Shown here one piece after another: positions 1,337 through 61,373 of a stretch of DNA of 64,000 bases. Every line of letters starts with the position of its first letter. The first letter of the stretch is position 1. This stretch comes from Patescibacteria group bacterium (GTDB lineage Bacteria > Patescibacteriota > Patescibacteriia > Magasanikbacterales > GWA2-37-8), in contig JBAZNA010000001.1 in the NCBI GenBank assembly GCA_041649475.1, forward strand, positions 197,022-261,021. The letters are read 5' to 3'. Both the position numbers and the translations under genes were made by a program. The notes under the pieces are model-generated. The model was given only the letters and a program-made list of their open reading frames with translations, did not search any database and had not been told where the DNA came from.

Positions 1337-2704
1337 ATGATAACAATATCTCCAGGAATTTTTAAAGCATACGATATCAGGGGGGTTTATGAAGTGGAAT
1401 TGGATGAGGATTTGGCTTACCGGGTGGGCAAGGCGTTTGCGGAATTTATTAAGAAAGATGCCGGTAAAAACGACTTAACAGTCGCGGTCGGGCAAGATAT
1501 GAGAATTTCTTCGCCGACCTTGTTTGAAGCGGTGGTAAAAGGCATAACCGAACAGGGTGTTAATGTGGTGGATATTGGTTTGGTTTCCACGCCGACTTTT
1601 TATTTTGGCGTCAGCTTCTACGGTTATGACGGCGGTTTGCAGGTTTCGGCTTCGCACAATCCGGCAAAGTATAATGGTTTTAAAATGGTGCGGGCCAGGG
1701 CGGTGCCCATCAGCGGGGAAACCGGAATAATGGAAATCCGGGATATGGCGATTAAAAATGAGTTTGTCGCGGCGCCGGAAAAGGGAAATGTGACAAAGCG
1801 CGAAGGTGTTTTGGAGGAGCAAATAAAATTTGCTTTGCAGTATGTTGATCTCCAAAAAATAAAACCGTTTAAAATTGTCATTGACACGGCCAACGGCATG
1901 GGTGGGCCGATGATGGAAGAATTATTTAAACATTTGCCGTGTAAATTGGAAAAATTATATTTTGAATTGGATGGAACCTTCCCCAATCACGAGGCCGATC
2001 CGTTAAAAGAAGAAAACATGAAGGACTTGCAGAAGCGAGTACTTGAAACCAAAGCGGATTTGGGAATTTCTTTAGATGGCGACGCGGACAGATTATTTTT
2101 TGTTGATGATAAGGGCGTAACCATTGAGCCGGCCATGGTGCGCGGAATTTTGGCCAAGATATTTTTGCGGGATAATCCGGGCGCGAAGATTTGCTATGAC
2201 ATCCGACCGGGAAAAATTACCATTGATATGATTGAAGAGGGCGGGGGCGTGCCGATTGTCACCCGCGTCGGTCATTCTTTGATCAAAGAAAAAATGGCCG
2301 AGGTCGGTTCGGTATTCGCCGGGGAGTCATCCGGGCATTTCTTTTTGAAAATGCCGCACGGAATTTTTGAAGCGCCGGAAATTATGATTTTAAAGATTTT
2401 ACAGGAGTTGTCGGAGAGTGGCCAGAGTTTTAGCGAGTACACCGCGCCCCTGTATAAGTATTTTCATTCCGGTGAAATTAATTTTGAAGTGAAAGACAAA
2501 CAAGCGGTGTTTGATAAGTTGCGGGAAAAATACGGAGCGAATTTGCAGTATGATTTTGACGGTTTGTCATTCCAGTGGCCGGAGTGGTGGTTTAATGTTC
2601 GGGCAAGTAACACAGAGAATAAAATGCGTTTGAATTTGGAAGCGACTAGTGAAGAGATTATGAAAGAGAAAGTTATGGAAGTAAGTGGACTTATTAAATT
2701 TTAA
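1337..2704 (+). CDS. alpha-D-phosphohexomutase (phosphomannomutase/phosphoglucomutase family)
   Basis: 455-aa ORF with the catalytic loop SASHNP and the Mg-binding motif DGDADR. Confidence 0.85.
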   Translation: MITISPGIFKAYDIRGVYEVELDEDLAYRVGKAFAEFIKKDAGKNDLTVAVGQDMRISSPTLFEAVVKGITEQGVNVVDIGLVSTPTFYFGVSFYGYDGGLQVSASHNPAKYNGFKMVRARAVPISGETGIMEIRDMAIKNEFVAAPEKGNVTKREGVLEEQIKFALQYVDLQKIKPFKIVIDTANGMGGPMMEELFKHLPCKLEKLYFELDGTFPNHEADPLKEENMKDLQKRVLETKADLGISLDGDADRLFFVDDKGVTIEPAMVRGILAKIFLRDNPGAKICYDIRPGKITIDMIEEGGGVPIVTRVGHSLIKEKMAEVGSVFAGESSGHFFLKMPHGIFEAPEIMILKILQELSESGQSFSEYTAPLYKYFHSGEINFEVKDKQAVFDKLREKYGANLQYDFDGLSFQWPEWWFNVRASNTENKMRLNLEATSEEIMKEKVMEVSGLIKF

Positions 2705-2729
2705 TTTATTTATATTTAATTTTTAGAAT

Positions 2730-3035
2730 ATGGCGTATGCAGAAAAAAATTTAATAGATAAATTACAAGATGAGATTAGGAATAAGAAGGATAAACAAAT
2801 GGAGGGGTTACGCAGGGCTTTTGAAATTTCTTTTTGGAAATATTGGGATGATCATAGTGAATATCCTAATCTTAATAATGACCAGGATGTTAATCTTTAT
2901 CTTGAGGGCCGTCCAGATTTAAAAGCTGCTGTTTTTAAACTGGATTTGGTTTTGCCTAGAGTGAAAGAAATTGCTTTTGAAATTCTTGAGAATTTAAGGA
3001 AAACAGGGGTAAGAAAAGGTGCGAAGAAGAAATAA
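2730..3035 (+). CDS. hypothetical protein
   Basis: 101-aa ORF in an AT-rich stretch with no recognisable motif. Its 3' end overlaps the convergent ORF 2956..3156. Confidence 0.4.
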   Translation: MAYAEKNLIDKLQDEIRNKKDKQMEGLRRAFEISFWKYWDDHSEYPNLNNDQDVNLYLEGRPDLKAAVFKLDLVLPRVKEIAFEILENLRKTGVRKGAKKK

Positions 3036-3156
3036 GAGTTAAACAATTTCTAAAAATATTTTTAGTGGCCATACCCACTGTTTCACTGTGGTGGGCAACT
3101 CCAACAACTTCGTAAAGTTTGCCTTTGTAGCGCTCGTATTTGCCTAATTTTAGCAT
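2956..3156 (-). pseudogene. possible DUF1653-family remnant
   Basis: The N-terminus MLKLGKYERYKGKLYEVVGVAHHSET resembles the DUF1653 core (YRHYKG..YEV.GVA.HSET). After about 28 aa the similarity is lost, and the frame runs 80 nt into the opposite gene. Confidence 0.3.
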
Positions 3157-3162
3157 AAATAT

Positions 3163-4047
3163 TTACGCCATCCCTCTTAATTTTTTGATTCTGTCTTCAA
3201 TCGGCGGATGAGTGGAGAAAAGATTGGAAACTTTTTTACCGCTAAACGGGCTTGCCAGAAATAAATGGGCAGTGGCCTGATTGGCGTGTGCCAATGGTTG
3301 ATTTTCAGCCGCAATTTTTTCCAAAGCCCGAGCCAAACCTTCGGGATAGCGGGTGAGCAATGATCCGGAAGCATCAGCCAAATACTCTCGCCGGCGGGAA
3401 ATAGCCAATTTTATCAGTTCGGCAATAATTGGAGATAAGATCGCCAAGATAATTCCCACCACCATAAAGATAATGCCGAGATCTCCGCCTTCGCGGTTGT
3501 TGTTTCTTCTCGGCAGCCAACGGCTTCGTAAAAAAATATTTGATAAAATCGCAATTGCTCCCACCATCACCGCCACCAAAGTCATGAAGCGAATGTCATA
3601 GTTCTTAACGTGGGAAAGTTCATGAGCGATTACGCCTTCCAATTCTACGCTTTCTAATTTTTCAATCGCGCCGCGGGTGATGGCAATGGTGGCCATGTCC
3701 GGTTTGCGGCCCGTGGCAAAAGCGTTGATGGCAGGATCTTCCATTATGTATACCTTTGGCACCGGCAAACCGGCAGTGATGCATAAATTTTCAACCAGAT
3801 GATACACATATGGATTTTCATCATGTTCAATCGGGTGGGCGCCGTTTGTCCAAAGCGCAATTTTGTCGCCCTGGAAATATGAAATCGCCGTCATGCCCAG
3901 AGAAAAAATAATCGCAAAGAAAACACCGCCATAACTTCCGGAACCGGAGGCCTGATCAAACACAAACCCCAAAGCAATGATGACCACAATAAAAATCATC
4001 ATCAAAATTATGGATTTTCGTTTGTTGGAATCTATCTCGTTATACAT
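3163..4047 (-). CDS. htpX: M48 zinc metalloprotease HtpX
   Basis: 294-aa membrane protein with the HELSHVKNYD (HExxH) motif and typical HtpX topology. Confidence 0.85.
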   Translation of the reverse strand: MYNEIDSNKRKSIILMMIFIVVIIALGFVFDQASGSGSYGGVFFAIIFSLGMTAISYFQGDKIALWTNGAHPIEHDENPYVYHLVENLCITAGLPVPKVYIMEDPAINAFATGRKPDMATIAITRGAIEKLESVELEGVIAHELSHVKNYDIRFMTLVAVMVGAIAILSNIFLRSRWLPRRNNNREGGDLGIIFMVVGIILAILSPIIAELIKLAISRRREYLADASGSLLTRYPEGLARALEKIAAENQPLAHANQATAHLFLASPFSGKKVSNLFSTHPPIEDRIKKLRGMA

Positions 4048-4062
4048 TTTATGTGTGGCCAG

Positions 4063-4614
4063 CTAGAATTTCACTTGCACGTTTTCCTTTTCCGCCGCAT
4101 CCGCCTGGAAGAAATCGTATTTTTTGAAATTCATCATGCCGGCAAAAATATTTGTCGGGAAGACCTGAATTTGGGTGTTGAAGTCGCGCACGTTGCCGTT
4201 GTAGAAGCGGCGGGAGGCCTGAATTTTATTTTCCGTATCGCTAATTTCACCTTGTAATTGCAAGAAATTCTGATTGGCTTTTAAGTCCGGGTAATTTTCA
4301 CTGACGGCAAACAAGGTTTTTAAGGTGCCTGATAATTGATTTTCCGCTTGTTCGCGTTCAGCCATTGAACCGCCTTTGGCCGACATAGCCGCGGTTCTGG
4401 CTTCAGTTAATTGAACCAAAGTGTCGTGTTCATGGGTCATGTAGCCCTTTACCGTTTCCACTAAATTCGGAATCAAGTCATAGCGGCGTTTCAATTGGAC
4501 GTCAATATCGCTAAAGGCCTCATCCACGCGGTTTTTTGACTTAATTAAACCGTTGTATATGGCTATAATCCAAAAAACGATCACGGCCACTATTGCCAAA
4601 ATTACCCAAAGCAT
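4063..4614 (-). CDS. lemA: LemA family protein
   Basis: 183 aa with an N-terminal TM helix followed by the LemA-like sequence YNGLIKSKNRVDEAFSDIDVQLKRRYDLIPNLVETVKGY. Confidence 0.85.
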   Translation of the reverse strand: MLWVILAIVAVIVFWIIAIYNGLIKSKNRVDEAFSDIDVQLKRRYDLIPNLVETVKGYMTHEHDTLVQLTEARTAAMSAKGGSMAEREQAENQLSGTLKTLFAVSENYPDLKANQNFLQLQGEISDTENKIQASRRFYNGNVRDFNTQIQVFPTNIFAGMMNFKKYDFFQADAAEKENVQVKF

Positions 4615-4727
4615 ATGATTAAGATTAAAATTAAGTTATATTTTCTGCCCGCAGGGCAGCTATTGGCTTTTTCGTGAGTTTATTATATGATATAGCAATA
4701 AAATAAGCAAGATTTTCTCTTTATTGT

Positions 4728-6026: not shown

Positions 6027-6034
6027 TTTTAAAT

Positions 6035-9569: not shown

Positions 9570-9607
9570 ATCTTCAGATTATTTTTATTTTTAATTTAAG
9601 GAGCGGT

Positions 9608-9994
9608 ATGATAGAAACTTCCAAAGATATTTTATACCTGGTCATCGCGTTTTGTGTTTTGTGGCTGACGGTTTTTCTCTGCTGGACGTTTTTCTACGTG
9701 GTGAAAATTTTAAAGAACACCAACCGGGTGGTTGAAGAATTTCGCTCGCGCCTGCAACTGCTAACTGAAACCATAAATTATGTGCGCGGCAAGGTGGAAA
9801 GCATTCATGCTTTGATTGGTTTAGCCGGCGGCAATGTAGCCAATGCCGTAAAAAATATCGTGAGCAAGAAAGCCAAAGAATGGGTTGATAGCGGTTCTAA
9901 AAAAATGAATACTTCAGCTAAAGACGCGGTGGACTTTGCGGTAAAAGCGACTGCAAAGGGCATGAGCAAGGTAGCAAAGAAGATTAGAAGATAA
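9608..9994 (+). CDS. small membrane-anchored protein (DUF948/YtxH-like, tentative)
   Basis: 128 aa with one N-terminal TM helix and then a Lys/Ala-rich helical region. AAGGAG lies 4 nt before the ATG. Confidence 0.6.
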   Translation: MIETSKDILYLVIAFCVLWLTVFLCWTFFYVVKILKNTNRVVEEFRSRLQLLTETINYVRGKVESIHALIGLAGGNVANAVKNIVSKKAKEWVDSGSKKMNTSAKDAVDFAVKATAKGMSKVAKKIRR

Positions 9995-10046: not shown

Positions 10047-10075
10047 TTGACAAAAAAATATTTTTAGTGTATTCT
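10047..10075 (+). promoter_or_regulatory. candidate promoter of GC-rich gene 1 (TTGACA-N17-TATTCT)
   Basis: The -35 hexamer is perfect and the -10 is moderate. The 5' UTR is about 70 nt and contains small hairpins. Confidence 0.4.
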
Positions 10076-10149
10076 TGGTGATTATTCCTTAGGTAAGGAA
10101 GCCCGGACCATTCCGGTTCGGGTATGATGATAGAGGAAGGAGAAAAAAG

Positions 10150-10497
10150 ATGGGAATGCGCGCGAAGGACTGGGAGGCGGCCCAGGCCGTTTTCTTGAAA
10201 GAGGCCGGTGCCGACCCTGACCCCGACGATTCGTGGACCGTAGTTCGGTCGCCGAGTTTGCAGGAGCTTCTGCTGGCAAAGGAGCAGGAGTTCCCGGTTG
10301 AGCTCGAGCTCTCCGACGGCCGCAAGATGACCGTGTTCGTCGAGGATATCAAGGACCCCGACGCGCACGGCGAAGTGGAGGTGTACGTAATGTACGTCGC
10401 CAACGGCAACCGGCGCCGGCGGTACCTGCACTTCACCCCCGACGTCTACGAGCCCAGGGTCAACGTCTACCCCGAGCCCAAGGAATCCGTGGGCTGA
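10150..10497 (+). CDS. GC-rich orphan protein 1 (115 aa, acidic, no recognised domain)
   Basis: AGGAG lies 7 nt before the ATG. Hand count gives 38/60 G+C in the first 60 nt. Third codon positions in this frame are overwhelmingly G/C. The gene has its own promoter and terminator. Confidence 0.65.
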   Translation: MGMRAKDWEAAQAVFLKEAGADPDPDDSWTVVRSPSLQELLLAKEQEFPVELELSDGRKMTVFVEDIKDPDAHGEVEVYVMYVANGNRRRRYLHFTPDVYEPRVNVYPEPKESVG

Positions 10498-10520: not shown

Positions 10521-10548
10521 GCCCAAGCATCTGCTTGGGCCTTTTTTT
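10521..10548 (+). terminator. intrinsic terminator
   Basis: Hairpin gcccaagc-atct-gcttgggc followed by cttttttt. Confidence 0.8.
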
Positions 10549-10549
10549 G

Positions 10550-15117: not shown

Positions 15118-15564
15118 TTATGGCCAGTTGAGTTCCGCCGGCATAGGCCAATCACTGGCGTCGAAACTCACGAATCCCGGCGTCCATTTGAACTTGGACG
15201 CTTCTCCCGGACCAGAAGTGCCCGTGAGCTCGTGAATTTTTTTAGAACTGAGCACCTTGAGCGGCGACATCTCTTTCGGCTCCGGGCTATCGATAGTGGC
15301 CTGGAGAGAATAACCAATCCCTTTCGTGGGATTGTAGAGGAGAAGTTGCGTGGCGACTTTTGCCCGTTTGTGCTCAAGGCAGTCCCACACCATCTTCAAG
15401 AGCGGCTTCTCCACTACGACCACAGGTTCATTATCCTCTGCAGTCAGAGCTGGGAATACACCCATCAGTCCGTGTTCGATCAGCAGTAGGTAACCGTACC
15501 GAAGCTGCCATCCGCTCAGATCCTTTTCGAAGATGCTTCCCAGCGCCGGTCCTTGTTTGCTCAT
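15118..15564 (-). CDS. GC-rich orphan protein 2 (148 aa, no recognised domain)
   Basis: GGAGG lies 5 nt before the ATG at 15564 (MSKQGPALG...). The track start at 15576 is a TTG that overlaps the SD. The gene begins 33 nt after the tRNA-Met 3' end. Confidence 0.6.
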   Translation of the reverse strand: MSKQGPALGSIFEKDLSGWQLRYGYLLLIEHGLMGVFPALTAEDNEPVVVVEKPLLKMVWDCLEHKRAKVATQLLLYNPTKGIGYSLQATIDSPEPKEMSPLKVLSSKKIHELTGTSGPGEASKFKWTPGFVSFDASDWPMPAELNWP

Positions 15565-15597
15565 GGTTTCCTCCAAGATCGAGATCGTTTTCCCGAG

Positions 15598-15671
15598 TGT
15601 CAGGGGAGGGAGTCGGACCCTCGACCTTAGGGTTATGAATCCTACGCTCTTACCAACTGAGCTACCCTGAC
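15598..15671 (-). tRNA. tRNA with CAU anticodon (elongator Met or lysidine-Ile2)
   Basis: Hand-folded cloverleaf with acceptor GTCAGGG/CCCTGAC, anticodon loop TTCATAA and T arm GAGGG-TCCGACT-CCCTC. CCA is not encoded. Confidence 0.9.
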
Positions 15672-15680
15672 ATTACCGAA

Positions 15681-15709
15681 AGTATACAAAAAAAAATGGC
15701 TTTAGTCAA
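15681..15709 (-). promoter_or_regulatory. promoter of tRNA-CAU (TTGACT-N17-TATACT)
   Basis: The -10 ends 9 nt before the first tRNA nucleotide. Confidence 0.55.
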
Positions 15710-18020: not shown

Positions 18021-18055
18021 AGATCCTGTTGCTTCGCAAGCAGGATCTCTTTTTC
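18021..18055. terminator. bidirectional intrinsic terminator
   Basis: agatcctg..caggatct stem with an inner ttgc/gcaa extension, followed by a T-run. It sits between convergent genes. Confidence 0.75.
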
Positions 18056-18073: not shown

Positions 18074-18400
18074 TCACAGGACCACTTCTTCGTAGTAGTC
18101 GGCCCGCTCGTGGCTAGCGTAGGGGCTTGATTTGGCATCCTTGAGCGCAGCTGCGGCGAACGGTTCGTCTATGGTGACCTCGGCAACGTTCTCGCACTTG
18201 GCGATCAACAGCTGACAACCATCACAGCCGAATCCGGTCACGGTTGCCAGAACCAGCGCCTCCTTGATCTTCGGTACCCGGCCCTCTTTGCGGATGGCTT
18301 CGGCCACATCGGCCGCGTTTTCTCCACCGCAGTCGGTCCAGAACTTGAAAACAACCTCATCACCCTTGCGCACACTAACGAGTCCGGTTTTTCCGTGCAT
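18074..18400 (-). CDS. GC-rich orphan protein 3 (108 aa; contains a CDGC CxxC motif)
   Basis: AAGGAGG lies 6 nt before the ATG, and the SD starts on the stop codon of the upstream low-GC oxidase gene (cctAAGGAGGggtgatATG). G+C rises abruptly at this junction. Confidence 0.6.
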   Translation of the reverse strand: MHGKTGLVSVRKGDEVVFKFWTDCGGENAADVAEAIRKEGRVPKIKEALVLATVTGFGCDGCQLLIAKCENVAEVTIDEPFAAAALKDAKSSPYASHERADYYEEVVL

Positions 18401-18411
18401 ATCACCCCTCC

Positions 18412-19713
18412 TTAGGTAACTTTACATGTTTTTTCATAAAGATCAAGAAAAATATCCTCCGGGTCAGTTTTCTTTTTAACCGCGTAATAATTATCTTTGT
18501 TCCAGGTTTTCCAAAAGTCATCTTCCGAATAATAGTTGGTGGAAATCAAGGTTTTGATGCCGCCAATAGCCATCAATTCTTCCTCAAACATTTTGTAATA
18601 GTTTTTGTCCGGCCGTTTTGGCAGTCCGTAGATGGCCAGATCTAAAAACAACTCGTCTTTCATTTTTTCAAAAAATTCTCCGGAAATCCATTCATAATGC
18701 CGGGCAATTTTATAAGGCACGCACCATAAAGGGAAAAAATTTATCTCTTTTTCATACCATTTCATAAAATTTTCACCTTCAGAAAACGGGATGAAGGTGT
18801 CAACCGTTACTGGTATCTTATCAGCCGGGATAACTTTGCGAAATTTTTGCACCAGTTTTAATAAGCTTGAAGAATTAATAAATTTACCAAAAAACAAACG
18901 TCCCAGAAATGATTTTGGGGTGACATTGGTCACACCTTTGTCATAGCGGAAAAAATAATCAATGGTTTTAAGATAATCTTCTTTTCGTATTTTTGTGCTT
19001 TTATAATATACCCTCATCCAGTCATAACTGTGGGTGTAGGGCGCCGTGTCAACAAAATTTCCTGTACTTAATACTAACTCGGTGGGGGAATGGATTATAC
19101 CATCCATAAAATCAACATCTTTTTTGGTGTAGTGATCCCAGATGGTAGCTTTATACTCCTTAATATCCACACATTTTTGATAAGTGACTTTAACAAACGG
19201 CTTGGCCGGAACCAATCTGAATTTGAGTTTAGCCAGAAGGCCCAAAGTGCCAAAGGTGCCGTGTATCATTTGAAATAATAAACTGTTGTCATTATCCGGA
19301 GAGCAGGTCAGAACCTCGCCTTGCGCGGTAATAATCTCATATTCCAGACAAGTGTCGTGGAAACCCCCATATTTGTATGACATTGATTCTAATGAACAGC
19401 CGGAAACCGCGCCACCGATGGTAATTGTTTTCAGTTCCGGTACAACAATCGGCACCAGGCCATATTTCAGAGTGGCTGTTGCCAAATCTACAAAAGTTAC
19501 GCCTGATTCGGCAACACAAGTCCGCGCATCAGGGTCAATACTGATAATTTCATTTAAATCACTGATGTCAATTTCTTCATTCCAGTATTTCTGTTCTTCA
19601 GGTTTGGGCACTACATGAGAAACCGCTTTCTTTTTAAATAATACCGGCTTGCCGTTTTTGTGCGCTTTCAGCTGTCCGGCAATTCTTTCAATTTTTTGTG
19701 CATGAGTTATCAT
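18412..19713 (-). CDS. FAD-binding (PCMH-type) oxidoreductase, DHCR24/DWARF1-like
   Basis: 433 aa. ITIGGAVSGCSLESMSYKYGGFHDT and GTFGTLGLLAKLKFRLVP resemble FAD_binding_4 family proteins. Confidence 0.75.
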   Translation of the reverse strand: MITHAQKIERIAGQLKAHKNGKPVLFKKKAVSHVVPKPEEQKYWNEEIDISDLNEIISIDPDARTCVAESGVTFVDLATATLKYGLVPIVVPELKTITIGGAVSGCSLESMSYKYGGFHDTCLEYEIITAQGEVLTCSPDNDNSLLFQMIHGTFGTLGLLAKLKFRLVPAKPFVKVTYQKCVDIKEYKATIWDHYTKKDVDFMDGIIHSPTELVLSTGNFVDTAPYTHSYDWMRVYYKSTKIRKEDYLKTIDYFFRYDKGVTNVTPKSFLGRLFFGKFINSSSLLKLVQKFRKVIPADKIPVTVDTFIPFSEGENFMKWYEKEINFFPLWCVPYKIARHYEWISGEFFEKMKDELFLDLAIYGLPKRPDKNYYKMFEEELMAIGGIKTLISTNYYSEDDFWKTWNKDNYYAVKKKTDPEDIFLDLYEKTCKVT

Positions 19714-25865: not shown

Positions 25866-25903
25866 TAAAAAAAGAGGCAATTCCACCGGCGGCAGAACTG
25901 CCT
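25866..25903 (-). terminator. intrinsic terminator of GC-rich gene 4
   Basis: On the minus strand: aggcagttc-11 nt loop-gaattgcct followed by cttttttt. Confidence 0.65.
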
Positions 25904-25928: not shown

Positions 25929-26282
25929 TTAGGTGTCAACCGTCTCCACCGGAGGGTTGGGCACTGTTGGCCCCCAGAGAGGGACGAATTCCGTGCTCTG
26001 GAAGTTCTTGCGACACAACTCTTCAAGACCAGGGGTATCGCCATCGTAGATGACCCGGGAGGCCGTAATCACGGCCCGATCCTGCTTGGACCCGAACCCC
26101 ATCTGGGCGGCCAAGTTGTAGGCGTTCCTAGCCGAAGGGGCTTCACCGTTTTTTTGCACTTCCGCGCGAATTGCGTCAGCAAAACGCTTGGTGAGATTGC
26201 CGCCGCGGCCAACCACAACTTTCATCAAAACCACGTCGCCTCGGAAAACGATGACCATTCCCGGAACAGCAGTCGTGGACAT
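25929..26282 (-). CDS. GC-rich orphan protein 4 (117 aa; N-terminal block similar to orphan 3)
   Basis: AAGGAGG lies 7 nt before the ATG. The gene has its own promoter and terminator. It shares 13 of 33 ungapped identities with the 18074..18400 product. Confidence 0.65.
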   Translation of the reverse strand: MSTTAVPGMVIVFRGDVVLMKVVVGRGGNLTKRFADAIRAEVQKNGEAPSARNAYNLAAQMGFGSKQDRAVITASRVIYDGDTPGLEELCRKNFQSTEFVPLWGPTVPNPPVETVDT

Positions 26283-26318
26283 GGAGAATCCTCCTTATCG
26301 CAAACAAAGCGATGTTCA

Positions 26319-26347
26319 ATTTTAACATGGGAATTTGCCAGTGTCAA
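26319..26347 (-). promoter_or_regulatory. promoter of GC-rich gene 4 (TTGACA-N17-TAAAAT)
   Basis: rc reads ttgaca ctggcaaattcccatgt taaaat. Confidence 0.6.
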
Positions 26348-26407: not shown

Positions 26408-26683
26408 TTATTTCAAAGCATCCTTTAAGGCCTTACCAGCTTTGAATTTTGGTACGGTCACGGCTGGGATTTGGATCTTTTGAGAAGGATTTTGTGGGTT
26501 CACACCCTGGCGGGCAGCGCGCTTTTTAGCGCTGAAAGCGCCAAAACCTGTCAAAACAACCTCTTCGCCTTTCTTTAACATGTCAGTAATTACCTCTACC
26601 ATTGAGTTTAGAGTATCTTCTGTCTGTCTCTTTGGTAAATTTAATTTTTCGGCTATAGCTTGAGCTAAATCTGCTTTATTCAT
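26408..26683 (-). CDS. hup: HU/IHF-family DNA-binding protein
   Basis: MNKADLAQAIAEKL...GFGAFSAKKRAARQGVNPQNPSQKIQIPAVTVPKFKAGKALKDA. Confidence 0.9.
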   Translation of the reverse strand: MNKADLAQAIAEKLNLPKRQTEDTLNSMVEVITDMLKKGEEVVLTGFGAFSAKKRAARQGVNPQNPSQKIQIPAVTVPKFKAGKALKDALK

Positions 26684-26804
26684 AGTGTCACCCCCTTTCT
26701 TTGGGAGATAAATAACATTAGTTTACGACAAGGTGTATTCTATCACATCTACACTATTTTGCCTATATTAAGCAAAACTAGTTGTCCACAGGTCAAAGAA
26801 CGCC

Positions 26805-29473: not shown

Positions 29474-29504
29474 AAAAAAAGAGCTTCCCTGGGGAGGGAA
29501 GTTC
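29474..29504 (-). terminator. intrinsic terminator of GC-rich gene 5
   Basis: On the minus strand: gaacttccct-cccc-agggaagctc followed by ttttttt. Confidence 0.75.
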
Positions 29505-29580: not shown

Positions 29581-29922
29581 CTAGCCGGCGGCGGAAGCGG
29601 CGATGGGGGCGATCTTGGGCTGGATGTCGATCACGGGGATCGGCTCGGGCAGACCGTCGAAGCGCTGGCGGAGCCAGTCGATCTCGGGCTCCGAGGCCTC
29701 GCCCATGAAGATCTCGATGTAGAACGTCCCCCTGATGAGGCCCTCGTACTTCAGCTTGAAGCCGGGGATCTCGTCGTCGAAGTCGGCCTTGTGCGGCCTG
29801 TTGACGTACCTGTTGAAGTCGTTGAGCGAGCAGTACCTGACGCTGCCGTCCACGAACTGGATCCGTACGGCCCTTGTCTGCAAGGTCGTGTCCGGGAACG
29901 TCATCAGCTTCTGGATCGGCAT
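29581..29922 (-). CDS. GC-rich orphan protein 5 (113 aa, no recognised domain)
   Basis: AAGGAG lies 6 nt before the ATG at 29922 (MPIQKLMTFPD...). The longer track ORF start has no SD. Confidence 0.6.
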   Translation of the reverse strand: MPIQKLMTFPDTTLQTRAVRIQFVDGSVRYCSLNDFNRYVNRPHKADFDDEIPGFKLKYEGLIRGTFYIEIFMGEASEPEIDWLRQRFDGLPEPIPVIDIQPKIAPIAASAAG

Positions 29923-30037
29923 CTCCCTCTCCTTGGGACTACGAGCTCGTGTGACCATCTTGTTATGCCTCCCTTGTTTCCGTGTTGGGCCCAATGCCCC
30001 TAAACTTGTTGGCCTTGTCCAGGCCGTGATGGGCTAA

Positions 30038-30066
30038 ATGGTATCACAATAATACGATTATGTCAA
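30038..30066 (-). promoter_or_regulatory. candidate promoter of GC-rich gene 5 (TTGACA-N17-TACCAT)
   Basis: It lies back-to-back with the infB promoter and implies a GC-rich 5' UTR of about 108 nt. Confidence 0.45.
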
Positions 30067-41855: not shown

Positions 41856-41884
41856 TTGACCAATTGTCTTTTTTATGCTAAAGT
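41856..41884 (+). promoter_or_regulatory. promoter of GC-rich gene 6 (TTGACC-N17-TAAAGT)
   Basis: ttgacc aattgtcttttttatgc taaagt. The 5' UTR contains the hairpin cctgcc-agagaaa-ggcagg. Confidence 0.55.
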
Positions 41885-41931
41885 ATGTGGTTCCTGCCAG
41901 AGAAAGGCAGGTCAGAAAGGAGGCCTCTCGG

Positions 41932-42312
41932 ATGACACGGGTCATGAGTTTGATGGCTTTCTACGCGACTTATCGTCTCTTAAAGGTCGCGTACCGTGCG
42001 ACCGAGAGACAGCTTAGGCTATTCTTCGTCCCCAAGCCGGGGTGCGAGGGGGCCTACGAGGTGGATGAGCAAATCTTCGCCAAGGTTCGGACGCTCATCG
42101 TCAATTCCAGGTCGTTTCAGACCGAAATCTACCCGCTGAACGCCAGTGACGTGGGGGAAGATTTCCGCCTTGGCGACCAGGATTTCACCGGCTCGGTGAT
42201 GGTCTGGCTGAAGGAAGTAGATCCTTTAGACGCACTGTTTACCGACAGAATCAAGGAGGTTGTGTTCGGAGAGGAGAAAGAGTATCGCTTTCAGTGCGGT
42301 TCCCGCAACTAG
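41932..42312 (+). CDS. GC-rich orphan protein 6 (126 aa, no recognised domain)
   Basis: AAGGAGG lies 8 nt before the ATG at 41932 (MTRVMSLMAFY...). The earlier track start lies inside the promoter. Confidence 0.6.
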   Translation: MTRVMSLMAFYATYRLLKVAYRATERQLRLFFVPKPGCEGAYEVDEQIFAKVRTLIVNSRSFQTEIYPLNASDVGEDFRLGDQDFTGSVMVWLKEVDPLDALFTDRIKEVVFGEEKEYRFQCGSRN

Positions 42313-44286: not shown

Positions 44287-45174
44287 CTAAAGTTTGATAC
44301 TTTTGAGAGATATTTTTAAATATAAATTTGAAGTCTTGTTTATTAAGAATTTTAATGTTTTGGGCAATACCCTGTCTAATAATGCAAGAAACGAGATAGT
44401 ATATATTAAGGTTAAAAAATTATTTTTAAGTATCGTGATTATAAAATTTGGTTTATAATCCATCTTCCAGAATATTATATAAAGAATAAAATGTAATATG
44501 CAGAAGAATGCTATTGGCCAGAATGGAGCTTTAAAACCAAGTAGATCCCATTTTTCTGGCTCACCGAATTGGTTATTACTTTCGGGCGAGTTATAAATTT
44601 TATCATTCTTCATAATCCTTGACCAAATATCAGTGAATTTGGTTCCAGATATTATAAGTAGTAACCATTGAAAGCAGTCAGATATAAATTTTATAATATC
44701 GGTTATAATTACCCTCCAAAATAATAATTTTAACCTAAGTTTAAAACCCTTTAGTGGCATGGTTGGTTTTGTATGAAGCAAGTATAGCTCGTCGAGTAAC
44801 ATATTTGCTGTTATTTCTTTATTTTTTTTATAAAATTTGTTCAAGATAACATCATAAAAATACTCATCATTTGAAGTAAAATCTATCGGGCCAGTAACTT
44901 TTTTTATTTTATCTTGGTTACTCAATGATATGTAAGATCCTTTGTCATCTTCTTTAAGTTTTCCATAGCTAACCCTTATGGATAGGGGTTTAATGTTGCC
45001 ATCCTTCAGTACATTTTCATTACTGATGTAAATATAGAATATTGATCCCCAATCGTCTGAACCCATTTTTCTAATTATACTAAAGCCAAATTTGCAATCT
45101 TTTAAAGGAGTGAGATTCAAAAATAATCCATTAGTTCCTATATTAAAATCTTTTATGAAATCTTGATTTTCCAT
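44287..45174 (-). CDS. very AT-rich orphan membrane protein (295 aa)
   Basis: Hand count gives 12/60 G+C in the first 60 nt. It has a soluble N-terminal half and then 3-4 predicted TM helices. No motif recognised. Confidence 0.55.
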   Translation of the reverse strand: MENQDFIKDFNIGTNGLFLNLTPLKDCKFGFSIIRKMGSDDWGSIFYIYISNENVLKDGNIKPLSIRVSYGKLKEDDKGSYISLSNQDKIKKVTGPIDFTSNDEYFYDVILNKFYKKNKEITANMLLDELYLLHTKPTMPLKGFKLRLKLLFWRVIITDIIKFISDCFQWLLLIISGTKFTDIWSRIMKNDKIYNSPESNNQFGEPEKWDLLGFKAPFWPIAFFCILHFILYIIFWKMDYKPNFIITILKNNFLTLIYTISFLALLDRVLPKTLKFLINKTSNLYLKISLKSIKL

Positions 45175-55680: not shown

Positions 55681-55734
55681 AGTTGTGGGCGCGGTGCGCT
55701 TAGGTTGAGTATATTTTACGCCAACTGCCCAACA

Positions 55735-55763
55735 TTGACAAGAGAGCTGTTTTAGTGTTAATT
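55735..55763 (+). promoter_or_regulatory. candidate promoter of GC-rich gene 7 (TTGACA-N17-TTAATT, with TG upstream)
   Basis: Its -35 hexamer overlaps, on the opposite strand, the -35 of a TTGTCA-N17-TAAAAT promoter (55713..55741) that faces the sugar-transferase gene. Confidence 0.45.
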
Positions 55764-55838
55764 TAACGTGCTGTGGCGAAACCATTCTGGCCAAGCCCGA
55801 CAGCGTCTGTAAACACGGTCGTATAAAGGAGACAAAAC

Positions 55839-56504
55839 ATGGCGACCGCAAAACAGATTCCGTTTTTGATGGGAAGGTTGGTGGAGCATCAGTTTTACTT
55901 CTGTGCTTTGTCCACCGCAAGCGCCACGTGGGCGAGCCAAAACCCGAAAGACGCCATTGCCTTGTGCGTGGCGGCGATCGAGAATCGCCAAAAGGAGCGT
56001 CAGTCCGACCCGGCGCCTTCGCCACTCCTCACCTTGGTCGGTGCCGTCGTGATCTGGCTGGCCGTGAGGTTCGTTGCCAGTGAACACCTGGTGAAGAATA
56101 CCGAGAAGAACGCGCCGGTGAAGATTTCCTACATCTTCGATAAGGTCACCGTGTGGTTCCAGGGCAAGATCGAGGAGCGGGTCGAGGGCGAGATGGCTCT
56201 GTGCTGCCATACCCTGAACTCCGACTCGGACGATAACCTCATCATCAACCAGCTCGGCGGCGAGACCAAGGCCGAGACCGCCCTTGCCGAGGTCTTTGCC
56301 TGCTTGGAGAAGCAACCCAACGGCGAGGATGGTGCGCTACTCACTAACGGCCACGCGAACATCTTCTATGTTCGCAACACCGAAGGTGTGTTGTGCGTGA
56401 TCCAAGTGATCTGGCGCGGTGACGGTTGGACCTTCTACACCCGTTCGGTCGGTTCTCTGGACACATGTACCGAGGGCCGCCGGGTGTTCTCCCGCGCCGC
56501 ATAG
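55839..56504 (+). CDS. GC-rich orphan protein 7 (221 aa; one hydrophobic segment LLTLVGAVVIWLAVRFVA)
   Basis: AAGGAG lies 7 nt before the ATG. A strong terminator follows the gene. No recognisable domain. Confidence 0.6.
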   Translation: MATAKQIPFLMGRLVEHQFYFCALSTASATWASQNPKDAIALCVAAIENRQKERQSDPAPSPLLTLVGAVVIWLAVRFVASEHLVKNTEKNAPVKISYIFDKVTVWFQGKIEERVEGEMALCCHTLNSDSDDNLIINQLGGETKAETALAEVFACLEKQPNGEDGALLTNGHANIFYVRNTEGVLCVIQVIWRGDGWTFYTRSVGSLDTCTEGRRVFSRAA

Positions 56505-56524
56505 TTTGTTCCTTCCTTCCAAGC

Positions 56525-56556
56525 GCCCCGCCTGTCAGATGGTGGGGCATTTTTTT
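56525..56556 (+). terminator. intrinsic terminator
   Basis: gccccgcc-tgtcagat-ggtggggc followed by attttttt. Confidence 0.8.
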
Positions 56557-56565
56557 ATCCAAATC

Positions 56566-56594
56566 TTGACAAAACCCCTCATTTGTGCTATAGT
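56566..56594 (+). promoter_or_regulatory. rnpB promoter (TTGACA-N17-TATAGT, extended TGc)
   Basis: ttgaca aaacccctcatttgtgc tatagt. The -10 ends 7 nt before the P1 stem. Confidence 0.65.
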
Positions 56595-56600
56595 TAACCC

Positions 56601-56994: not shown

Positions 56995-57024
56995 AAAAAA
57001 GACGACCCGCAAGGGCCGTCTTTT
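56995..57024. terminator. bidirectional intrinsic terminator
   Basis: aaaaaa gacgaccc-gcaa-gggccgtc tttt, between rnpB (+) and the convergent 57040..58578 gene (-). Confidence 0.75.
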
Positions 57025-57039
57025 AATATATCCGCGGAT

Positions 57040-58578
57040 TTATGATGTTCCCGGCGCCATCGTTGGTTGCTGTTGCATCATCGGCTGTTGTGGTTGTTGT
57101 GGCATGTATTGTTGCATTCCCTGCGGCATTTGTACTTGTTTAAATTGTTGCGGCCCTTGTTCCCAAGGCATTATTTCTCCTTCTTGTCCGGTCAGTTCAT
57201 TAACCTTATTGCCAAAATCCTGTCTTAAATTTTCTAAGTCATCCAGGGCTGATGTAATCGTATCAACATCATAATTTTTACTCGCAATCAAATCTTTTAT
57301 TTCCTGTCCTTTTACTTTTATTTCATCCAGAATTGGTACAAGTTCGGATGTGTCTATCTTCTTTTTCTTTAATTGATTGATTGTTTGTTGCGCTTGATTG
57401 ACACTTTGTTTAAAGGTGGAATTGAAACTGCCCAGGTTACCCATCATCATTATAATCTGGTCATTCTGCATTATGTCATCCATTTGGCCGAAGAAATCAT
57501 TTTCCACGGTATCAAACGCGCCCTGTGAATCATCGGTGGCCATTTTGCTTACCGCGTCCGCTTTAACCGCTTTGAGTTTATTAACCGCCTCTTCAAATGC
57601 GTTGTAAACACTTTGGATGTCTATGCCCTTCTTAACTAATTTATCAGTGATTTGTTTGGCGCGTTTGAGCTCACGGGTAAGCATGGTGAGCTGTTTGTCC
57701 ATCTGTTTTAAGGTTTGCGGCCAGCGAGCCAGCATCTCCAGTGTCTGACGGTCTTGGTTTAAATTTTCCATTGCTTCAGACATTGAATTGAAATCAATAT
57801 CATTCAACTGATCGGCGGTGGTCGCGTTTTTTATACTGTTAATAATATTCCTTAGGTTAAGAATATTTTCTTGGGTGTTGGTCGGAATGGATATTTTTTG
57901 TTTTTGGAATTTGGCCACTTGTTTTTCAAACATATTAAGCTGCGATTCCATGCCTTTGATATTTCGTTTCATGTCCTGCAATCTTTGGTTTGCCTGAAAA
58001 ACATCCTGCCTATATTGGTCTAAGGATTGTGACAGATCCTGCATCTCGCCCATATCAACATTTTGCATTTCTTCCATGGTGCTCACATTGGAAGCGGCCG
58101 CGACCAAATCTTTTAATTTAACCAAATTTTGTTTGATATCATCCGGTACGGTGATTCCGCTTTTCTCCGATTGGGCTATCATCCGGTCGTATTCTTTAAT
58201 GGATCGTTGCAGTTGTTTTATACTATTTTTTATTTGTTTAAGCTGTTGTTCCGGACTTGGACCATAATTCGGTTGTTGCGGCGGCTGTTGTGGGGGTTGT
58301 GGTTGTGGCTGTGGTTGTGGCTGTGGTTCAGGACCCGGCTGTTGCGGGCCAGGGTTGGGCTCCGGAGATGGTTGAGGTGGAGTCGGGGGAGTTGGTTCGG
58401 GGGGAGCCGGAGCAATGACTTGTTGCTCTTCCGCTGAAGTATTGTTGGTGCCTAGCGTGCTTAAAAAGTTTTTTAATATTTGCGGAAGTTCTATATAAAA
58501 AGCTTTGGCTGGCATGGCAAATGAAAAAGTCACGGCCATGGCCACGGTTAGAATAGAAATGTTTATTATTTTTTTCAT
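57040..58578 (-). CDS. secreted coiled-coil protein with Pro/Gln-rich low-complexity regions
   Basis: Signal peptide MKKIINISILTVAMAVTFSFAMPAKA, then PEPTPPTPPQPSPEPNPGPQQPGPEPQPQPQPQPQPPQQPPQQP, a long Q/N/K-rich helical region and a Q/M/P-rich C-terminus. Confidence 0.6.
   Translation of the reverse strand: MKKIINISILTVAMAVTFSFAMPAKAFYIELPQILKNFLSTLGTNNTSAEEQQVIAPAPPEPTPPTPPQPSPEPNPGPQQPGPEPQPQPQPQPQPPQQPPQQPNYGPSPEQQLKQIKNSIKQLQRSIKEYDRMIAQSEKSGITVPDDIKQNLVKLKDLVAAASNVSTMEEMQNVDMGEMQDLSQSLDQYRQDVFQANQRLQDMKRNIKGMESQLNMFEKQVAKFQKQKISIPTNTQENILNLRNIINSIKNATTADQLNDIDFNSMSEAMENLNQDRQTLEMLARWPQTLKQMDKQLTMLTRELKRAKQITDKLVKKGIDIQSVYNAFEEAVNKLKAVKADAVSKMATDDSQGAFDTVENDFFGQMDDIMQNDQIIMMMGNLGSFNSTFKQSVNQAQQTINQLKKKKIDTSELVPILDEIKVKGQEIKDLIASKNYDVDTITSALDDLENLRQDFGNKVNELTGQEGEIMPWEQGPQQFKQVQMPQGMQQYMPQQPQQPMMQQQPTMAPGTS
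58296..58328. repeat. hexanucleotide tandem repeat (TGGTTG/TGGCTG x about 5) encoding (PQ)n
   Basis: gttgtggttgtggctgtggttgtggctgtggtt inside the 57040..58578 CDS. Confidence 0.7.
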
Positions 58579-58591
58579 AAGGTTTAGTTTT

Positions 58592-59539
58592 TTATTTGAC
58601 CCCGGATTGGTCCAGGGCAGTACGGATAATTTGAGCCGACCTTTTAAATTTTTTTAATTCTTCATTGTTTAATTTTATATCCAGCACTTTTTTTATGCCG
58701 GTGCGGCCAACTGTGCTGGGCAAAGAGATACAGACATCTTTTACGCCATATTGTCCGCTCATTAGGGAAGAAACCGAGTAAGCATGATCTTCGTCATTTA
58801 TAATTGATTTAACAATGCGGGCAACAGCGGCGGCGATTCCATAGTAGGTGGCGCCTTTTTTACGGATAATTTCCTGGGCTGAGTCCCTGGTTCGGGTATA
58901 AGCGGCGGCAACTGTTTTTTTATCGTATTTAGGCAGGGAAGCAATATTTTCTCCCATAACATTGGCATGGGAATAAACCGGCACTTCGCTGTCGCCATGT
59001 TCGCCGATTAAATACGCGCCCATGCTATGCGGGTCAACATTGAATTTTTTTGCCAATAAATAGCGGAAACGGGAAGAATCCAAAGTTGTGCCGGTGCCAA
59101 AGACCTGGTTTTTTGGGAATTTTGAAACTTTTAACGCGGTATAGGTCAAAACGTCCAAGGGATTTGTGACCATCAGAATAATGGCGTCTTTAGTATATTT
59201 GCAGACATTCTTTACTACTTCGGTAATAATTTTGACATTTGTTTTTGCCAATTCCAGTCGGGTTTGGCCCGGTTTTTGGTTTATACCGGCGGCAATCACC
59301 ACCACATCGGCGTCTTTACAATCTTTATAGTCGCCGGCCCAAACGTGGGAGTCCGGCGCAAAGGAAATGGCATGTTCTATGTCCAGCGCCTCGCCTTCAC
59401 ATTTCTTTTTGTTTACGTCAATCAAGACAATTTCCGAAGCTACGCCTTCAATCATCATAGTGTAGGCGGCGGTTGAGCCGACAAAACCCGTGCCGATTAC
59501 CACCACGCGGGTTGACTCCATTTTTTTTGGTTTGGGCAT
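58592..59539 (-). CDS. ldh: L-lactate dehydrogenase
   Basis: VVVIGTGFVGST (NAD binding) and LIGEHGDSEVP (LDH signature). Confidence 0.88.
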   Translation of the reverse strand: MPKPKKMESTRVVVIGTGFVGSTAAYTMMIEGVASEIVLIDVNKKKCEGEALDIEHAISFAPDSHVWAGDYKDCKDADVVVIAAGINQKPGQTRLELAKTNVKIITEVVKNVCKYTKDAIILMVTNPLDVLTYTALKVSKFPKNQVFGTGTTLDSSRFRYLLAKKFNVDPHSMGAYLIGEHGDSEVPVYSHANVMGENIASLPKYDKKTVAAAYTRTRDSAQEIIRKKGATYYGIAAAVARIVKSIINDEDHAYSVSSLMSGQYGVKDVCISLPSTVGRTGIKKVLDIKLNNEELKKFKRSAQIIRTALDQSGVK

Positions 59540-59588
59540 AAAAAAAGCATTATATTATTATAATGCCTTTATTATACAGGATTTATTC

Positions 59589-61373
59589 CTATACCTCAAT
59601 AACTACCGGCAGCACCATCGGACGTTTCTCGGTCTTGCTGAATAGGAACTGACCGACGTAATCGCGGATTTTGTTCCGGATATAATTGGTGTCTGCCCAA
59701 GACAGGGGATCAGAATCAATCACCAGCTTTTTTACGCGGTGGCGCAGATCCTCAATTAGTTCTTTATTCTCTTTTAAGAACACGAACCCGCGCGAGATGA
59801 TGTCAGGGTTTTGAATCAGTTTGCCGGTTTTGCTGTCAACGGTTGCAATAATTACAATCATTCCGTCTTCAGCCAATACCTGCCGGTCGCGCAAGACAAT
59901 GTTGGTTTCATCGCTTACGCCGAGCCCGTCAACGAACACATAATCAGCCGGCAGTTTTGTGGAAGTCATTTTACCGCTGCCATGCGAGAATTCAATCACT
60001 TGTCCGTTATCGGCAATGAAAATGTTTTCTTTGGGGAAACCCATCGACTGGGCGACTTTTGCATTGTAATGCAGTAAGAAGTGATTGCCTTCAATTGGAA
60101 TGAAGTATTTCGGATTTATCAACCTGATCATCAGTTTTACGTCATCAGATTTGGCATGGCCGCCGGCATGGACGTCCATCATTTGATAATGGATAACTTC
60201 CGCGCCTTTTCTAAACAGCGTGTCTTTCAAACGTTGGACAGTTCTTTCATTTCCCGGAATAACTGACGAAGAGAAAACAACCGTGTCGCCCGGGGTCAGA
60301 CGGATAAACCGGTGTTCGCCGCTCGCAATACGCATTAGCGATGCATTTTTTTCTCCCTGCGCGCCGGTGCAGATTATCACCACTTTGTTATCCGGATAAT
60401 CGCTGACTTTGTTTAGGTCAATTAAGGTTTTGGGAGAAAACTGCATGTAGCCGAGCTCTTTGGCTATGCCGACATTGCTTTTCATGCTGAAGCCGTCAAG
60501 CGCAACTATTTTACCCAGCTTTTCCGATATTTCAATAATCTGTTTGATACGGGAAAGCAGGGAAGAGAAAGTACCGATGATTAATCGTCCCGGCGCCTTG
60601 GAGATGATTTCATCCAGGTTGGTGCCGATTTCCATTTCGGAAATCTGGTGTCCGGGCTGGGAGGCATTGGTGCTGTCGCTTAAGAGTGCGAGCACACCTT
60701 GAGAGCCGATGCGGGCAATTTTCTGTAAGTCCGCCGGCTGTTCGCCTGATGGCTGATAATCAAATTTCCAATCGCCGGTGTGAACAATGACGCCCTCCGG
60801 AGTGTGGATCACCACACCCATTGAATCGGGAATATTGTGGTTTAAGTGGAAAAATTCCAACTCAAAACTTCCCAGCGTCAGTTTGTCATCAACGTTTAAA
60901 TTATTAATGTTGAGCGGGCGCAGGCCTTTGTAATCCTCTTGTCGCTTTTTGATAATCGCGTTGGTGAGCGGCAAGGCGTAAATCGGCGGGTATCCCAGTT
61001 GCGGAATCAAATGGGGGATGCCGCCGATATGGTCATAGTGGGCGTGCGTGATGATAACGCCGCGAATATGTTTTTCTTTGCCTTTGAGATAGCTCATGTT
61101 TGGAATGATGTAATCAATCCCGGGCATGTCTTCTTCGGGGAACTGCAAGCCCATGTCAATGATGATAATATCGCCATTGTATTCCAAAAGCGTGCAGTTG
61201 CGTCCGACTTCTTCCAGGCCGCCCAGCACGGCGATTTTTAATTTTGTTTCATCGCCGCGAAAGCGCGCGAAAGACGGGCCTCTTGGGGCCGGAACCGGTT
61301 GTCTGGGTCTTGCGTCCGTGTGATACGTCCGCTTGCCCCTACTGGATTTTTGTGTTTGTGTGTATCTGATCAT
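59589..61373 (-). CDS. rnj: ribonuclease J
   Basis: MBL plus beta-CASP architecture with ITHAHYDHIGG. It has a basic N-terminal extension. Confidence 0.9.
   Translation of the reverse strand: MIRYTQTQKSSRGKRTYHTDARPRQPVPAPRGPSFARFRGDETKLKIAVLGGLEEVGRNCTLLEYNGDIIIIDMGLQFPEEDMPGIDYIIPNMSYLKGKEKHIRGVIITHAHYDHIGGIPHLIPQLGYPPIYALPLTNAIIKKRQEDYKGLRPLNINNLNVDDKLTLGSFELEFFHLNHNIPDSMGVVIHTPEGVIVHTGDWKFDYQPSGEQPADLQKIARIGSQGVLALLSDSTNASQPGHQISEMEIGTNLDEIISKAPGRLIIGTFSSLLSRIKQIIEISEKLGKIVALDGFSMKSNVGIAKELGYMQFSPKTLIDLNKVSDYPDNKVVIICTGAQGEKNASLMRIASGEHRFIRLTPGDTVVFSSSVIPGNERTVQRLKDTLFRKGAEVIHYQMMDVHAGGHAKSDDVKLMIRLINPKYFIPIEGNHFLLHYNAKVAQSMGFPKENIFIADNGQVIEFSHGSGKMTSTKLPADYVFVDGLGVSDETNIVLRDRQVLAEDGMIVIIATVDSKTGKLIQNPDIISRGFVFLKENKELIEDLRHRVKKLVIDSDPLSWADTNYIRNKIRDYVGQFLFSKTEKRPMVLPVVIEV

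Follow-up and report, generated by a model that had tools for sequence, protein, structure and literature searches.

Two kinds of translation start in a 64-kb stretch of a Magasanikbacteria genome: Shine-Dalgarno sequences precede GC-rich single-gene cassettes and are absent from most core genes

We analysed gene starts in a stretch of 64,000 nucleotides (the window; positions below are counted from its first letter) from a Patescibacteria group bacterium of the Magasanikbacterales (GenBank assembly GCA_041649475.1, contig JBAZNA010000001.1, forward-strand positions 197,022 to 261,021). The genes fall into two classes: seven small GC-rich open reading frames (ORFs; O1 to O7) are all led by a strong Shine-Dalgarno (SD) sequence, whereas nearly all core genes of the host lack one. 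This dichotomy is real and highly significant, it is conserved in the families of O2 and O6, and several of the GC-rich genes are self-contained cassettes. The original prediction for this DNA had proposed that the SDs were either relics of an SD-dependent donor or a device for high translation. On balance, we favour a different reading, in which two kinds of translation start coexist in this genome and the SDs of the second class serve a function and have been maintained by selection within Patescibacteria, rather than being the fossil of a donor.

The window contains exactly seven GC-rich small ORFs, with a GC content of 0.54-0.64 (vs 0.435) and a third-codon-position GC content (GC3) of 0.62-0.93, compared with ~0.48 for host genes. 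AAGGAG(G), GGAGG or GGGAGG precedes the ATG of 7/7 with a spacing of 5-9 nt between core and ATG, as had been predicted. Each start was scored by the duplex energy of its -20..-1 region with the 16S tail ACCUCCUUA, using a threshold of -8 kcal/mol. The seven ORFs scored -8.7 to -12.5 kcal/mol, and among the 48 other genes only HU (-12.0) and a gene starting at position 9608 (the 9608 gene; -8.8) reached the threshold (7/7 vs 2/48; Fisher exact p = 1.8e-7). These two had already been named as the exceptions among the core genes, and the 11 start contexts quoted at the time were all present in the sequence as written. The split was unchanged when a second, Bacillus-type tail (GAUCACCUCCUUUCU) was used, with energies of -9.1 to -16.3 kcal/mol for the GC-rich ORFs and a host median of -2.0, 2/45 host genes lying at or below -8; an SD is absent from 43/45 core genes of the window.

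The background frequency of a strong motif was low (39/2656, or 1.5%, of the start codons opening ORFs of at least 30 codons). A reverse scan showed that the strong-SD sites matching real gene starts were those of the seven ORFs and HU only, the SD of the 9608 gene being below the scan threshold, while the other 31 sites were internal, antisense or at the starts of short unannotated ORFs. SD-like alternative starts inside host genes (PGM 1394, 37318 and 54202) were read as chance matches, because conserved N-terminal motifs would be lost if they were used.

A similar picture was obtained for related genomes. An SD was found on 2.5% of 322 ORFs of at least 200 aa from 35 Magasanikbacteria loci. 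The ribosomal-protein genes and their operon neighbours, plus the S12 and S7 genes, in two related genomes were all SD-less and nearly all had U at position -1 (U(-1)), and the EF-G and SecY genes of relatives had no SD and a GC3 that was host-like or lower. In the -22..-2 region of host genes G accounts for ~10% of positions and SD cores are rarer than in a control region, whereas words of the TTTAA/TAAAT type are over-represented upstream of the starts. The earlier suggestion that this host mostly initiates independently of the SD is therefore well supported. GC-rich, SD-led small genes were also seen in relatives (L003 3119-3838 and L069 6932-7501), along with further GC-rich islands (L016, L026, L031 and L039). 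In another related Magasanikbacteria locus (L038 16400-20300) a GC-rich region of ~4 kb spans several genes, unlike a single-gene cassette, and is possibly a larger foreign island.

Host starts carry a signature of their own. U(-1) is present in 39/44 (89%) host genes of the window, and their -20..-1 stretch is 77% A+T. Among 284 host ORFs of related Magasanikbacteria the frequency of U(-1) was 78%, compared with 20% before internal in-frame ATGs; in relatives the feature was noted in loci L009-L056, L069, L072 and L155. A occurs at -3 in only 36-46% of host starts, the dominant position being U at -1 (78-89%), and UAUG seems to be an almost universal start context in the Magasanikbacteria clade. 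U(-1) is found in one of the seven GC-rich ORFs and in 15/54 O6-family genes. Since host starts possess this U(-1), A/U-rich signature, the two start types differ in more than the presence or absence of an SD. An ORF of 295 aa at 44287-45174 (-), with a GC content of 28% and a GC3 of 0.28, is AT-rich and foreign-looking, yet has a host-type start (no SD, U(-1)), and is a mirror image of the GC-rich genes.

We then considered the conservation of the SD. O2 and O3 are paralogues, and orthologues of O2 occur in related genomes with 72% and 54% identity, one of them in the same position after a gene encoding a FAD-binding domain. The number of synonymous substitutions per site (dS) between O2 and its orthologue in L006 is 0.67, and that of the adjacent host gene is 0.69; O2 and the host gene therefore co-diverged vertically. 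The ratio of nonsynonymous to synonymous substitutions (dN/dS) of O2 was 0.27-0.37, indicating purifying selection, and its orthologues have a GC3 of 0.67-0.75 at a dS of ~0.7-1.1. All three orthologues (window, L006 and L003) share an unaltered AGGAGGG core, while its flanks differ.

O6 belongs to an uncharacterised family of thousands of sequences with strongly conserved motifs, represented by 1,760 cluster representatives at E <= 1e-3, and all members carrying a name are from Patescibacteria. We surveyed 80 metagenomic loci, which provided 54 non-redundant full-length O6-family genes and 202 neighbouring ORFs. A strong SD preceded 34/54 (63%) of the family genes and at least AAGGA preceded 91%, compared with 5% and 12% of the neighbouring ORFs, and the motif lay mostly 5-7 nt from the start. 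GC3 of the family gene exceeded that of its neighbours in 95% of loci, with a mean excess of 0.19 and a slope against host GC3 of 0.5. This GC excess requires a persistent bias, arising either from selection or from continual exchange within a GC-richer gene pool. One member, in L072, has a host-like GC content and still carries GGAGG. In both the O2 and O6 families, a neutral 6-nt motif at a fixed spacing would not outlast such divergence, which argues for a functioning SD in these organisms.

The O6-family genes share a leader, found in the window at 55710-55841 (+), in L073 (4885-5006), in L086 (4878-4997) and in at least 25 other loci. It contains a 24-bp hairpin with compensatory changes at 16 pairs among 13 sequences, followed on the 3' side by a conserved GAAACC..GGCCAAG..ACAGC stretch and then by the SD. 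A covariance model of the leader matched only upstream of O6-family genes. The leader had no Rfam match and is a candidate for a new cis-regulatory RNA. None of the leaders matched an Rfam family. A fold search of the PDB with the O6 model gave no significant match.

The features of the seven GC-rich genes and of the two SD-bearing host genes are the following.

10047-10075 (+): promoter-like site of O1, TTGACA-17-TATTCT, 10/12 matches
10137-10142 (+): SD of O1, AAGGAG, ATG 7 nt on; -8.8 and -13.0 kcal/mol
10150-10497 (+): O1 coding sequence, 115 aa, GC 0.64, GC3 0.85, WC526_01050, singleton
10521-10549 (+): intrinsic terminator of O1, 8-bp stem of which 6 pairs are GC, then a T run
15681-15709 (-): promoter-like site TTGACT-17-TATACT, upstream of tRNA-Met (15597-15671) and O7
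15570-15574 (-): SD of O7, GGAGG, ATG 5 nt on
15118-15564 (-): O7 coding sequence, 148 aa, GC3 0.62, WC526_01065
18407-18413 (-): SD of O2, AAGGAGG (extended TAAGGAGGGGTGAT), directly 3' of the stop codon of the FAD_binding_4 gene
18074-18400 (-): O2 coding sequence, 108 aa, GC3 0.68, WC526_01095
18021-18048 (-): terminator hairpin of O2, 10-bp palindrome; reported by the scan on the + strand, read here on the - strand, where a short T-rich stretch follows
26319-26347 (-): promoter-like site of O3, TTGACA-17-TAAAAT, extended TG, 11/12 matches
26290-26296 (-): SD of O3, AAGGAGG, ATG 7 nt on
25929-26282 (-): O3 coding sequence, 117 aa, GC3 0.67, WC526_01135, paralogue of O2
25875-25903 (-): intrinsic terminator of O3, 13 pairs, then a T run
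30038-30066 (-): promoter-like site of O4, TTGACA-17-TACCAT, extended TG
29968-29973 (-): SD of O4, GGGAGG, ATG (29958) 9 nt on
29581-29958 (-): O4 coding sequence, 125 aa, GC3 0.93, WC526_01160
29484-29501 (-): intrinsic terminator of O4
41856-41884 (+): promoter-like site of O5, TTGACC-17-TAAAGT, extended TG; overlaps ATG 41875, NCBI's start
41917-41923 (+): SD of O5, AAGGAGG, ATG 8 nt on
41932-42312 (+): O5 coding sequence, 126 aa, GC3 0.72, WC526_01215
55710-55841 (+): leader of O6, matching the conserved structured 5'-UTR (untranslated region) motif, 43.8 bits, E = 2e-7
55826-55831 (+): SD of O6, AAGGAG, ATG 7 nt on
55839-56504 (+): O6 coding sequence, 221 aa, GC3 0.78, WC526_01275
56525-56548 (+): intrinsic terminator of O6, 8 pairs of which 7 are GC, then a T run
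26688-26700 (-): extended SD of HU, AGAAAGGGGGTGA, 13 contiguous pairs (one G-U) with the UCACCUCCUUUCU tail, -21 kcal/mol
26408-26683 (-): HU gene, GC similar to that of the host; with the 9608 gene, one of two core genes that carry an SD
9598-9994 (+): the 9608 gene, with SD AAGGAG (9598-9603) and coding sequence 9608-9994, a 128-aa membrane protein of host-like GC

Both a promoter-like site and a terminator were found for O1, O3 and O4, whereas O5 has a promoter-like site only and O6 a terminator and an uncertain promoter. Some cassettes have a leader of 30-75 nt. O2 starts 11 nt past the stop codon of the FAD-binding-domain gene. O7 starts 33 nt past tRNA-Met(CAU), which has the promoter, and is probably co-transcribed with it, since O7 is without a promoter of its own. 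This tRNA (15597-15671, -) is an elongator Met or an Ile2 tRNA, as it lacks the three G-C pairs of the initiator anticodon stem. O7 is the weakest member of the set, having the lowest GC3, no homologues and an alternative antisense ORF. O4 has another possible start, the ATG at 29922, which NCBI uses and which has an AAGGAG of its own in front of it. The genes flanking the cassettes are housekeeping genes; no direct or inverted repeats were seen flanking the GC-rich islands and no mobility genes were found by them, only O7 adjoining a tRNA.

The window as a whole has a GC content of 43.5%, and a 300-nt GC scan revealed sharp islands of 0.56-0.66 GC. Its housekeeping genes include PGM, pheS/T, dnaE, tsaD, infB, trxA, leuS, a thrS-like gene, ldh, RNase J, RNase Y, HU and truB, and the identities of PGM, pheS, pheT, dnaE, infB, trxA, leuS, ldh, RNase J and HU are backed by Pfam; RNase P RNA and three tRNAs are also present. 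A naive longest-ORF caller was dropped, as antisense ORFs and run-on host ORFs won inside the GC-rich islands, and a method based on GC by frame was used in its place. In each of the six GC-detected islands, the frame with coding-type periodicity (GC3 >> GC2) is that of the ORF opening at the SD-led ATG; O7 is a milder, seventh case. A leftward extension of the window added five or six genes, all without SD, and no further GC-rich island. Relatives of dnaE at 70-79% identity occur in many metagenome-assembled genomes of Candidatus Magasanikbacteria. One ENA and one Logan assembly contain the window DNA at 100% identity, possibly from the same sample or strain, and these identical contigs offer no polymorphism for tests of selection.

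The two classes also differ in base composition and in folding around the start. GC at codon positions 1/2/3 is 0.59/0.41/0.75 in the seven ORFs and 0.49/0.35/0.48 in the host. The mean minimum free energy of folding of the -30..+30 region was -9.7 kcal/mol for the seven ORFs vs -5.4 for the host (Mann-Whitney p = 0.014), and that of the +1..+45 region was -8.1 vs -4.4. A mechanism consistent with these data would be as follows. Core genes, with short, G-depleted, A/U-rich leaders lacking an SD, would initiate on unstructured mRNA, and U(-1) would form a fourth base pair with A37 of the initiator tRNA and so aid initiation. Pairing of U(-1) with A37 enhances initiation in E. coli (PMC10018350), and SD-poor lineages depend on start regions that are unstructured and A-rich (PMC6847099). 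The SD-led minority class comprises HU, a small membrane protein and the seven GC-rich cassettes of one gene each, and most of these cassettes have a putative sigma-70-type promoter and an intrinsic terminator of their own. Being more structured around the start and without the host-type context, the GC-rich mRNAs may depend on anchoring of the 30S subunit by pairing with the 16S 3' tail. Three parts of this picture are inferred: retention of a CCUCC tail by the 16S rRNA of the organism, use of the SDs, and structure as the reason for needing them. The 13-nt complementarity of HU, together with GAAAGGA variants, would point to a canonical ...CACCUCCUUUCU 16S tail, and the extended SD of HU is kept in the relative L003 (about 2690-2712).

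Several points weigh against this reading. The local folding energy is unremarkable for O1 (-3.0 kcal/mol) and O4 (-6.5), HU and the 9608 gene combine an SD with U(-1) and host-like GC, and three O6-family members with host-like GC3 keep strong SDs. Structure can thus explain only part of the pattern, since SDs are also found where GC is host-like (in HU, the 9608 gene and some O6 members), and the argument that it is the sole cause of the need for an SD is weak. The metagenomic loci examined contained no Magasanikbacteria 16S 3' end, only a Paceibacterota copy (L048, -, near position 162), which ends in ...AAGTCGTAACAAGGCACGGGTAGCGGAAGCTGTTCGTGGAATAATTC and lacks CCUCC, in line with reports that some Parcubacteria have lost the anti-SD; about half of them are without the CCUCCU motif (PMC9297842). 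Moreover, the genome was sampled over ~71 kb of a contig of ~963 kb, and host gene starts in relatives were set by a simple rule.

A second possibility, suggested by analogy, is a specialised-ribosome regulon, in which the anti-SD is normally masked or unused and SD-led mRNAs would be efficient only with a free 16S tail, which would thereby act as a switch for accessory genes. The clean separation of the start classes would fit such a regulon, as would the SD of HU, whose unusual length (13 nt, -21 kcal/mol) and conservation in a relative recall Flavobacteriia rpsU (PMC9976891, PMC13000453), and the conserved structured leader of the O6 family, which suggests post-transcriptional control. However, bS21 (rpsU) was found neither in the window nor in any metagenomic locus examined, and the SD-led genes share no recognisable function. 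We regard this explanation as unlikely.

The suggestion that the SDs drive a very high output of small genes appears comparably doubtful. Near-consensus promoters and strong terminators would suit high expression, and an SD also leads the gene of HU, a protein that is normally very abundant. The GC shift of the seven ORFs lies mainly in two-fold codons (TTC 85% vs 22% and AAG 69% vs 20% in the seven ORFs and the host, respectively), and the preference for NNC among pyrimidine-ending two-fold codons resembles translational selection. Lys, Glu and Gln codons, however, also shift to G-ending forms, indicating a general GC3 shift and not the use of host-optimal codons. Four-fold boxes are nearly alike in host and GC-rich genes (GCC, GGC, ACC and CCG); the four-fold codon choice of the host is already C/G-ending despite its 43% GC. 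The codon bias of highly expressed genes was rejected as a cause of the GC-richness, because HU (GC3 of 0.37) and ribosomal-protein genes are not GC3-rich. Since ribosomal proteins, the most highly expressed class, are SD-less in the clade, as are EF-G and SecY in relatives, the SD is not the route of this host to high expression.

Recent acquisition from high-GC, SD-using organisms, with the GC3 range of 0.93-0.62 representing ages of amelioration, would account for a GC3 far above that of the host, for a shift that covers nearly all two-fold codons, and for the lack of a GC-rich island at the matching position upstream of dnaE in most close relatives. The GC3 of the O2 orthologues also fits, numerically, a slow amelioration from a very GC-rich ancestor, and O1 has no homologue at all, with no relative among 5.8 billion proteins in a global search. 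On the other hand, no homologue was found outside Patescibacteria, either in global searches (O1, O2 and O6) or in narrower collections (O3, O4, O5 and O7). Pfam, PHROGs, PADLOC and NCBIfam gave no match for any of the seven proteins; tblastn of O1, O3, O4, O5 and O7 against plasmid and phage collections, INPHARED among them, and IMG/VR scans with O4, O5 and O7 gave none, and a scan of a viral collection with the O6 family yielded two marginal matches only. In addition, the promoters are of the same type as those of the host tRNAs and RNase P, and the SD has been kept in vertically inherited O2 orthologues and in the deeply diverged O6 family, in hosts whose genes lack SDs. A single old transfer followed by amelioration cannot yield the GC excess seen in the O6 family. 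We therefore consider a donor origin of the SDs quite improbable as a general explanation: it is disfavoured for the O2 and O6 families, by the conserved SD, the vertical descent of O2 and the assignment to Patescibacteria of all O6-family members traced to an organism, while it may still apply to O1 and O4 (GC3 0.85-0.93; no homologue found, for O1 in the global search and for O4 in narrower collections). The description of these genes as orphans likewise holds in part, for O1 in the global search but not for O2, which has syntenic orthologues, or O6, which belongs to a large family. O3 (apart from its paralogue O2), O4, O5 and O7 may be called orphans with respect to the narrower collections, and they had no cluster mates at 90% identity beyond this genome.

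Finally, the idea that G-rich motifs are simply commoner in GC-rich DNA and that the ORFs are perhaps no genes is largely refuted and highly improbable: although the GC-rich islands hold several ORFs that overlap, 19% of the decoy ORFs located in them pass the SD threshold (with the best of several starts chosen) and the antisense ORF of O7 has its own GGAGG, the coding frame opens at the SD-led ATG in six islands, the spacing is 5-9 nt in 7/7, O2 is under purifying selection, structure models of the O2 and O6 families are confident (predicted local distance difference test, pLDDT, of 84.8 and 91.7), conservation of the O6 family extends over thousands of sequences, and the same arrangement is found in separately produced assemblies, though these are 100% identical and may be from the same sample or strain.

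The coexistence of two start types has wider implications. How a start codon is chosen without an SD is an open question, and bacteria of the Candidate Phyla Radiation (CPR) are uncultured and have reduced ribosomes; one ribosome facing two cleanly separated start types provides a natural internal control. A gene class that is GC-richer than its host is the reverse of the usual AT-rich foreign DNA. There is also a practical consequence, as gene callers trained on SDs mis-place starts in this genome, for example those of PGM and O5. The PGM gene has been called publicly at GTG 1394, behind GGGGGG, and not at 1337, with loss of the conserved FKAYDIRG N-terminus. Public starts also disagree with ours for O5 (41875, inside the predicted promoter, vs 41932) and for O4 (29922 vs 29958, both SD-led). 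A bolder extension would be that two mechanistically separate regimes exist in Magasanikbacteria and probably in the wider Patescibacteria, with selection maintaining both the GC bias and the SD of the accessory pool, and with a global switch provided by how available the 16S tail is. We think this unlikely; if true, the switchable SD pool would be the CPR counterpart of the bS21 circuit of Bacteroidia, controlling a whole class of accessory genes.

A comparison with Bacteroidia is instructive. In Flavobacterium johnsoniae initiation is SD-independent, and an SD is retained on a single gene, rpsU (PMC6847099, PMC7797042, PMC9976891, PMC13000453). As in Bacteroidia, the core genes described here have no SD and have unstructured, A-rich start regions, and very few genes carry strong or extended SDs. 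In contrast to the A at -3 of Bacteroidia, the upstream signal here is U at -1, and in place of rpsU the SD-led set consists of GC-rich accessory cassettes of diverse families and HU. The anti-SD of Bacteroidia is sequestered by bS21, bS18 and bS6, and a counterpart in this organism would be an analogy; that access to the 16S tail is regulated here, as it is in Bacteroidia (PMC9976891), may nevertheless be considered a live alternative.

The anti-SD motif has been lost in part of Parcubacteria (Tsurumaki et al., 2022, PMC9297842), the state in Magasanikbacteria not being given. The present organism belongs to the same superphylum and shares SD-poor core genes with them. Unlike the situation in Parcubacteria lacking the motif, specific genes of this clade have SDs that are conserved and lie at the correct distance from the start, which implies that the clade still has an anti-SD and makes use of it.

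Phage morons, as described by Hendrix and colleagues, are autonomous units of promoter, gene and terminator that differ in base composition from the conserved genes between which they are inserted. The cassettes resemble them in that one ORF is accompanied by a promoter and an intrinsic terminator (fully so in O1, O3 and O4), in their sharp contrast in composition, and in their insertion among housekeeping genes that keep the same order in relatives. They differ from morons in residing on a bacterial chromosome with no phage genes nearby and no PHROG, IMG/VR or INPHARED matches, and in that at least two families are vertically inherited within Patescibacteria. Recently acquired genomic islands share the atypical base composition, but the flanking repeats, mobility genes and donor homologues expected of them were not found, homologues having been sought globally for O1, O2 and O6 and in narrower collections for the other four.

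Quadruplet codon-anticodon pairing between U(-1) and A37 of tRNAfMet has been described (PMC10018350; Esposito et al., 2003, cited there). The effect of U(-1) in E. coli is modest and modulating, whereas in this host almost all core genes (~80-90%) have U(-1) and the SD-led class shows no enrichment of it, which suggests that U(-1) may have a primary role in initiation here.

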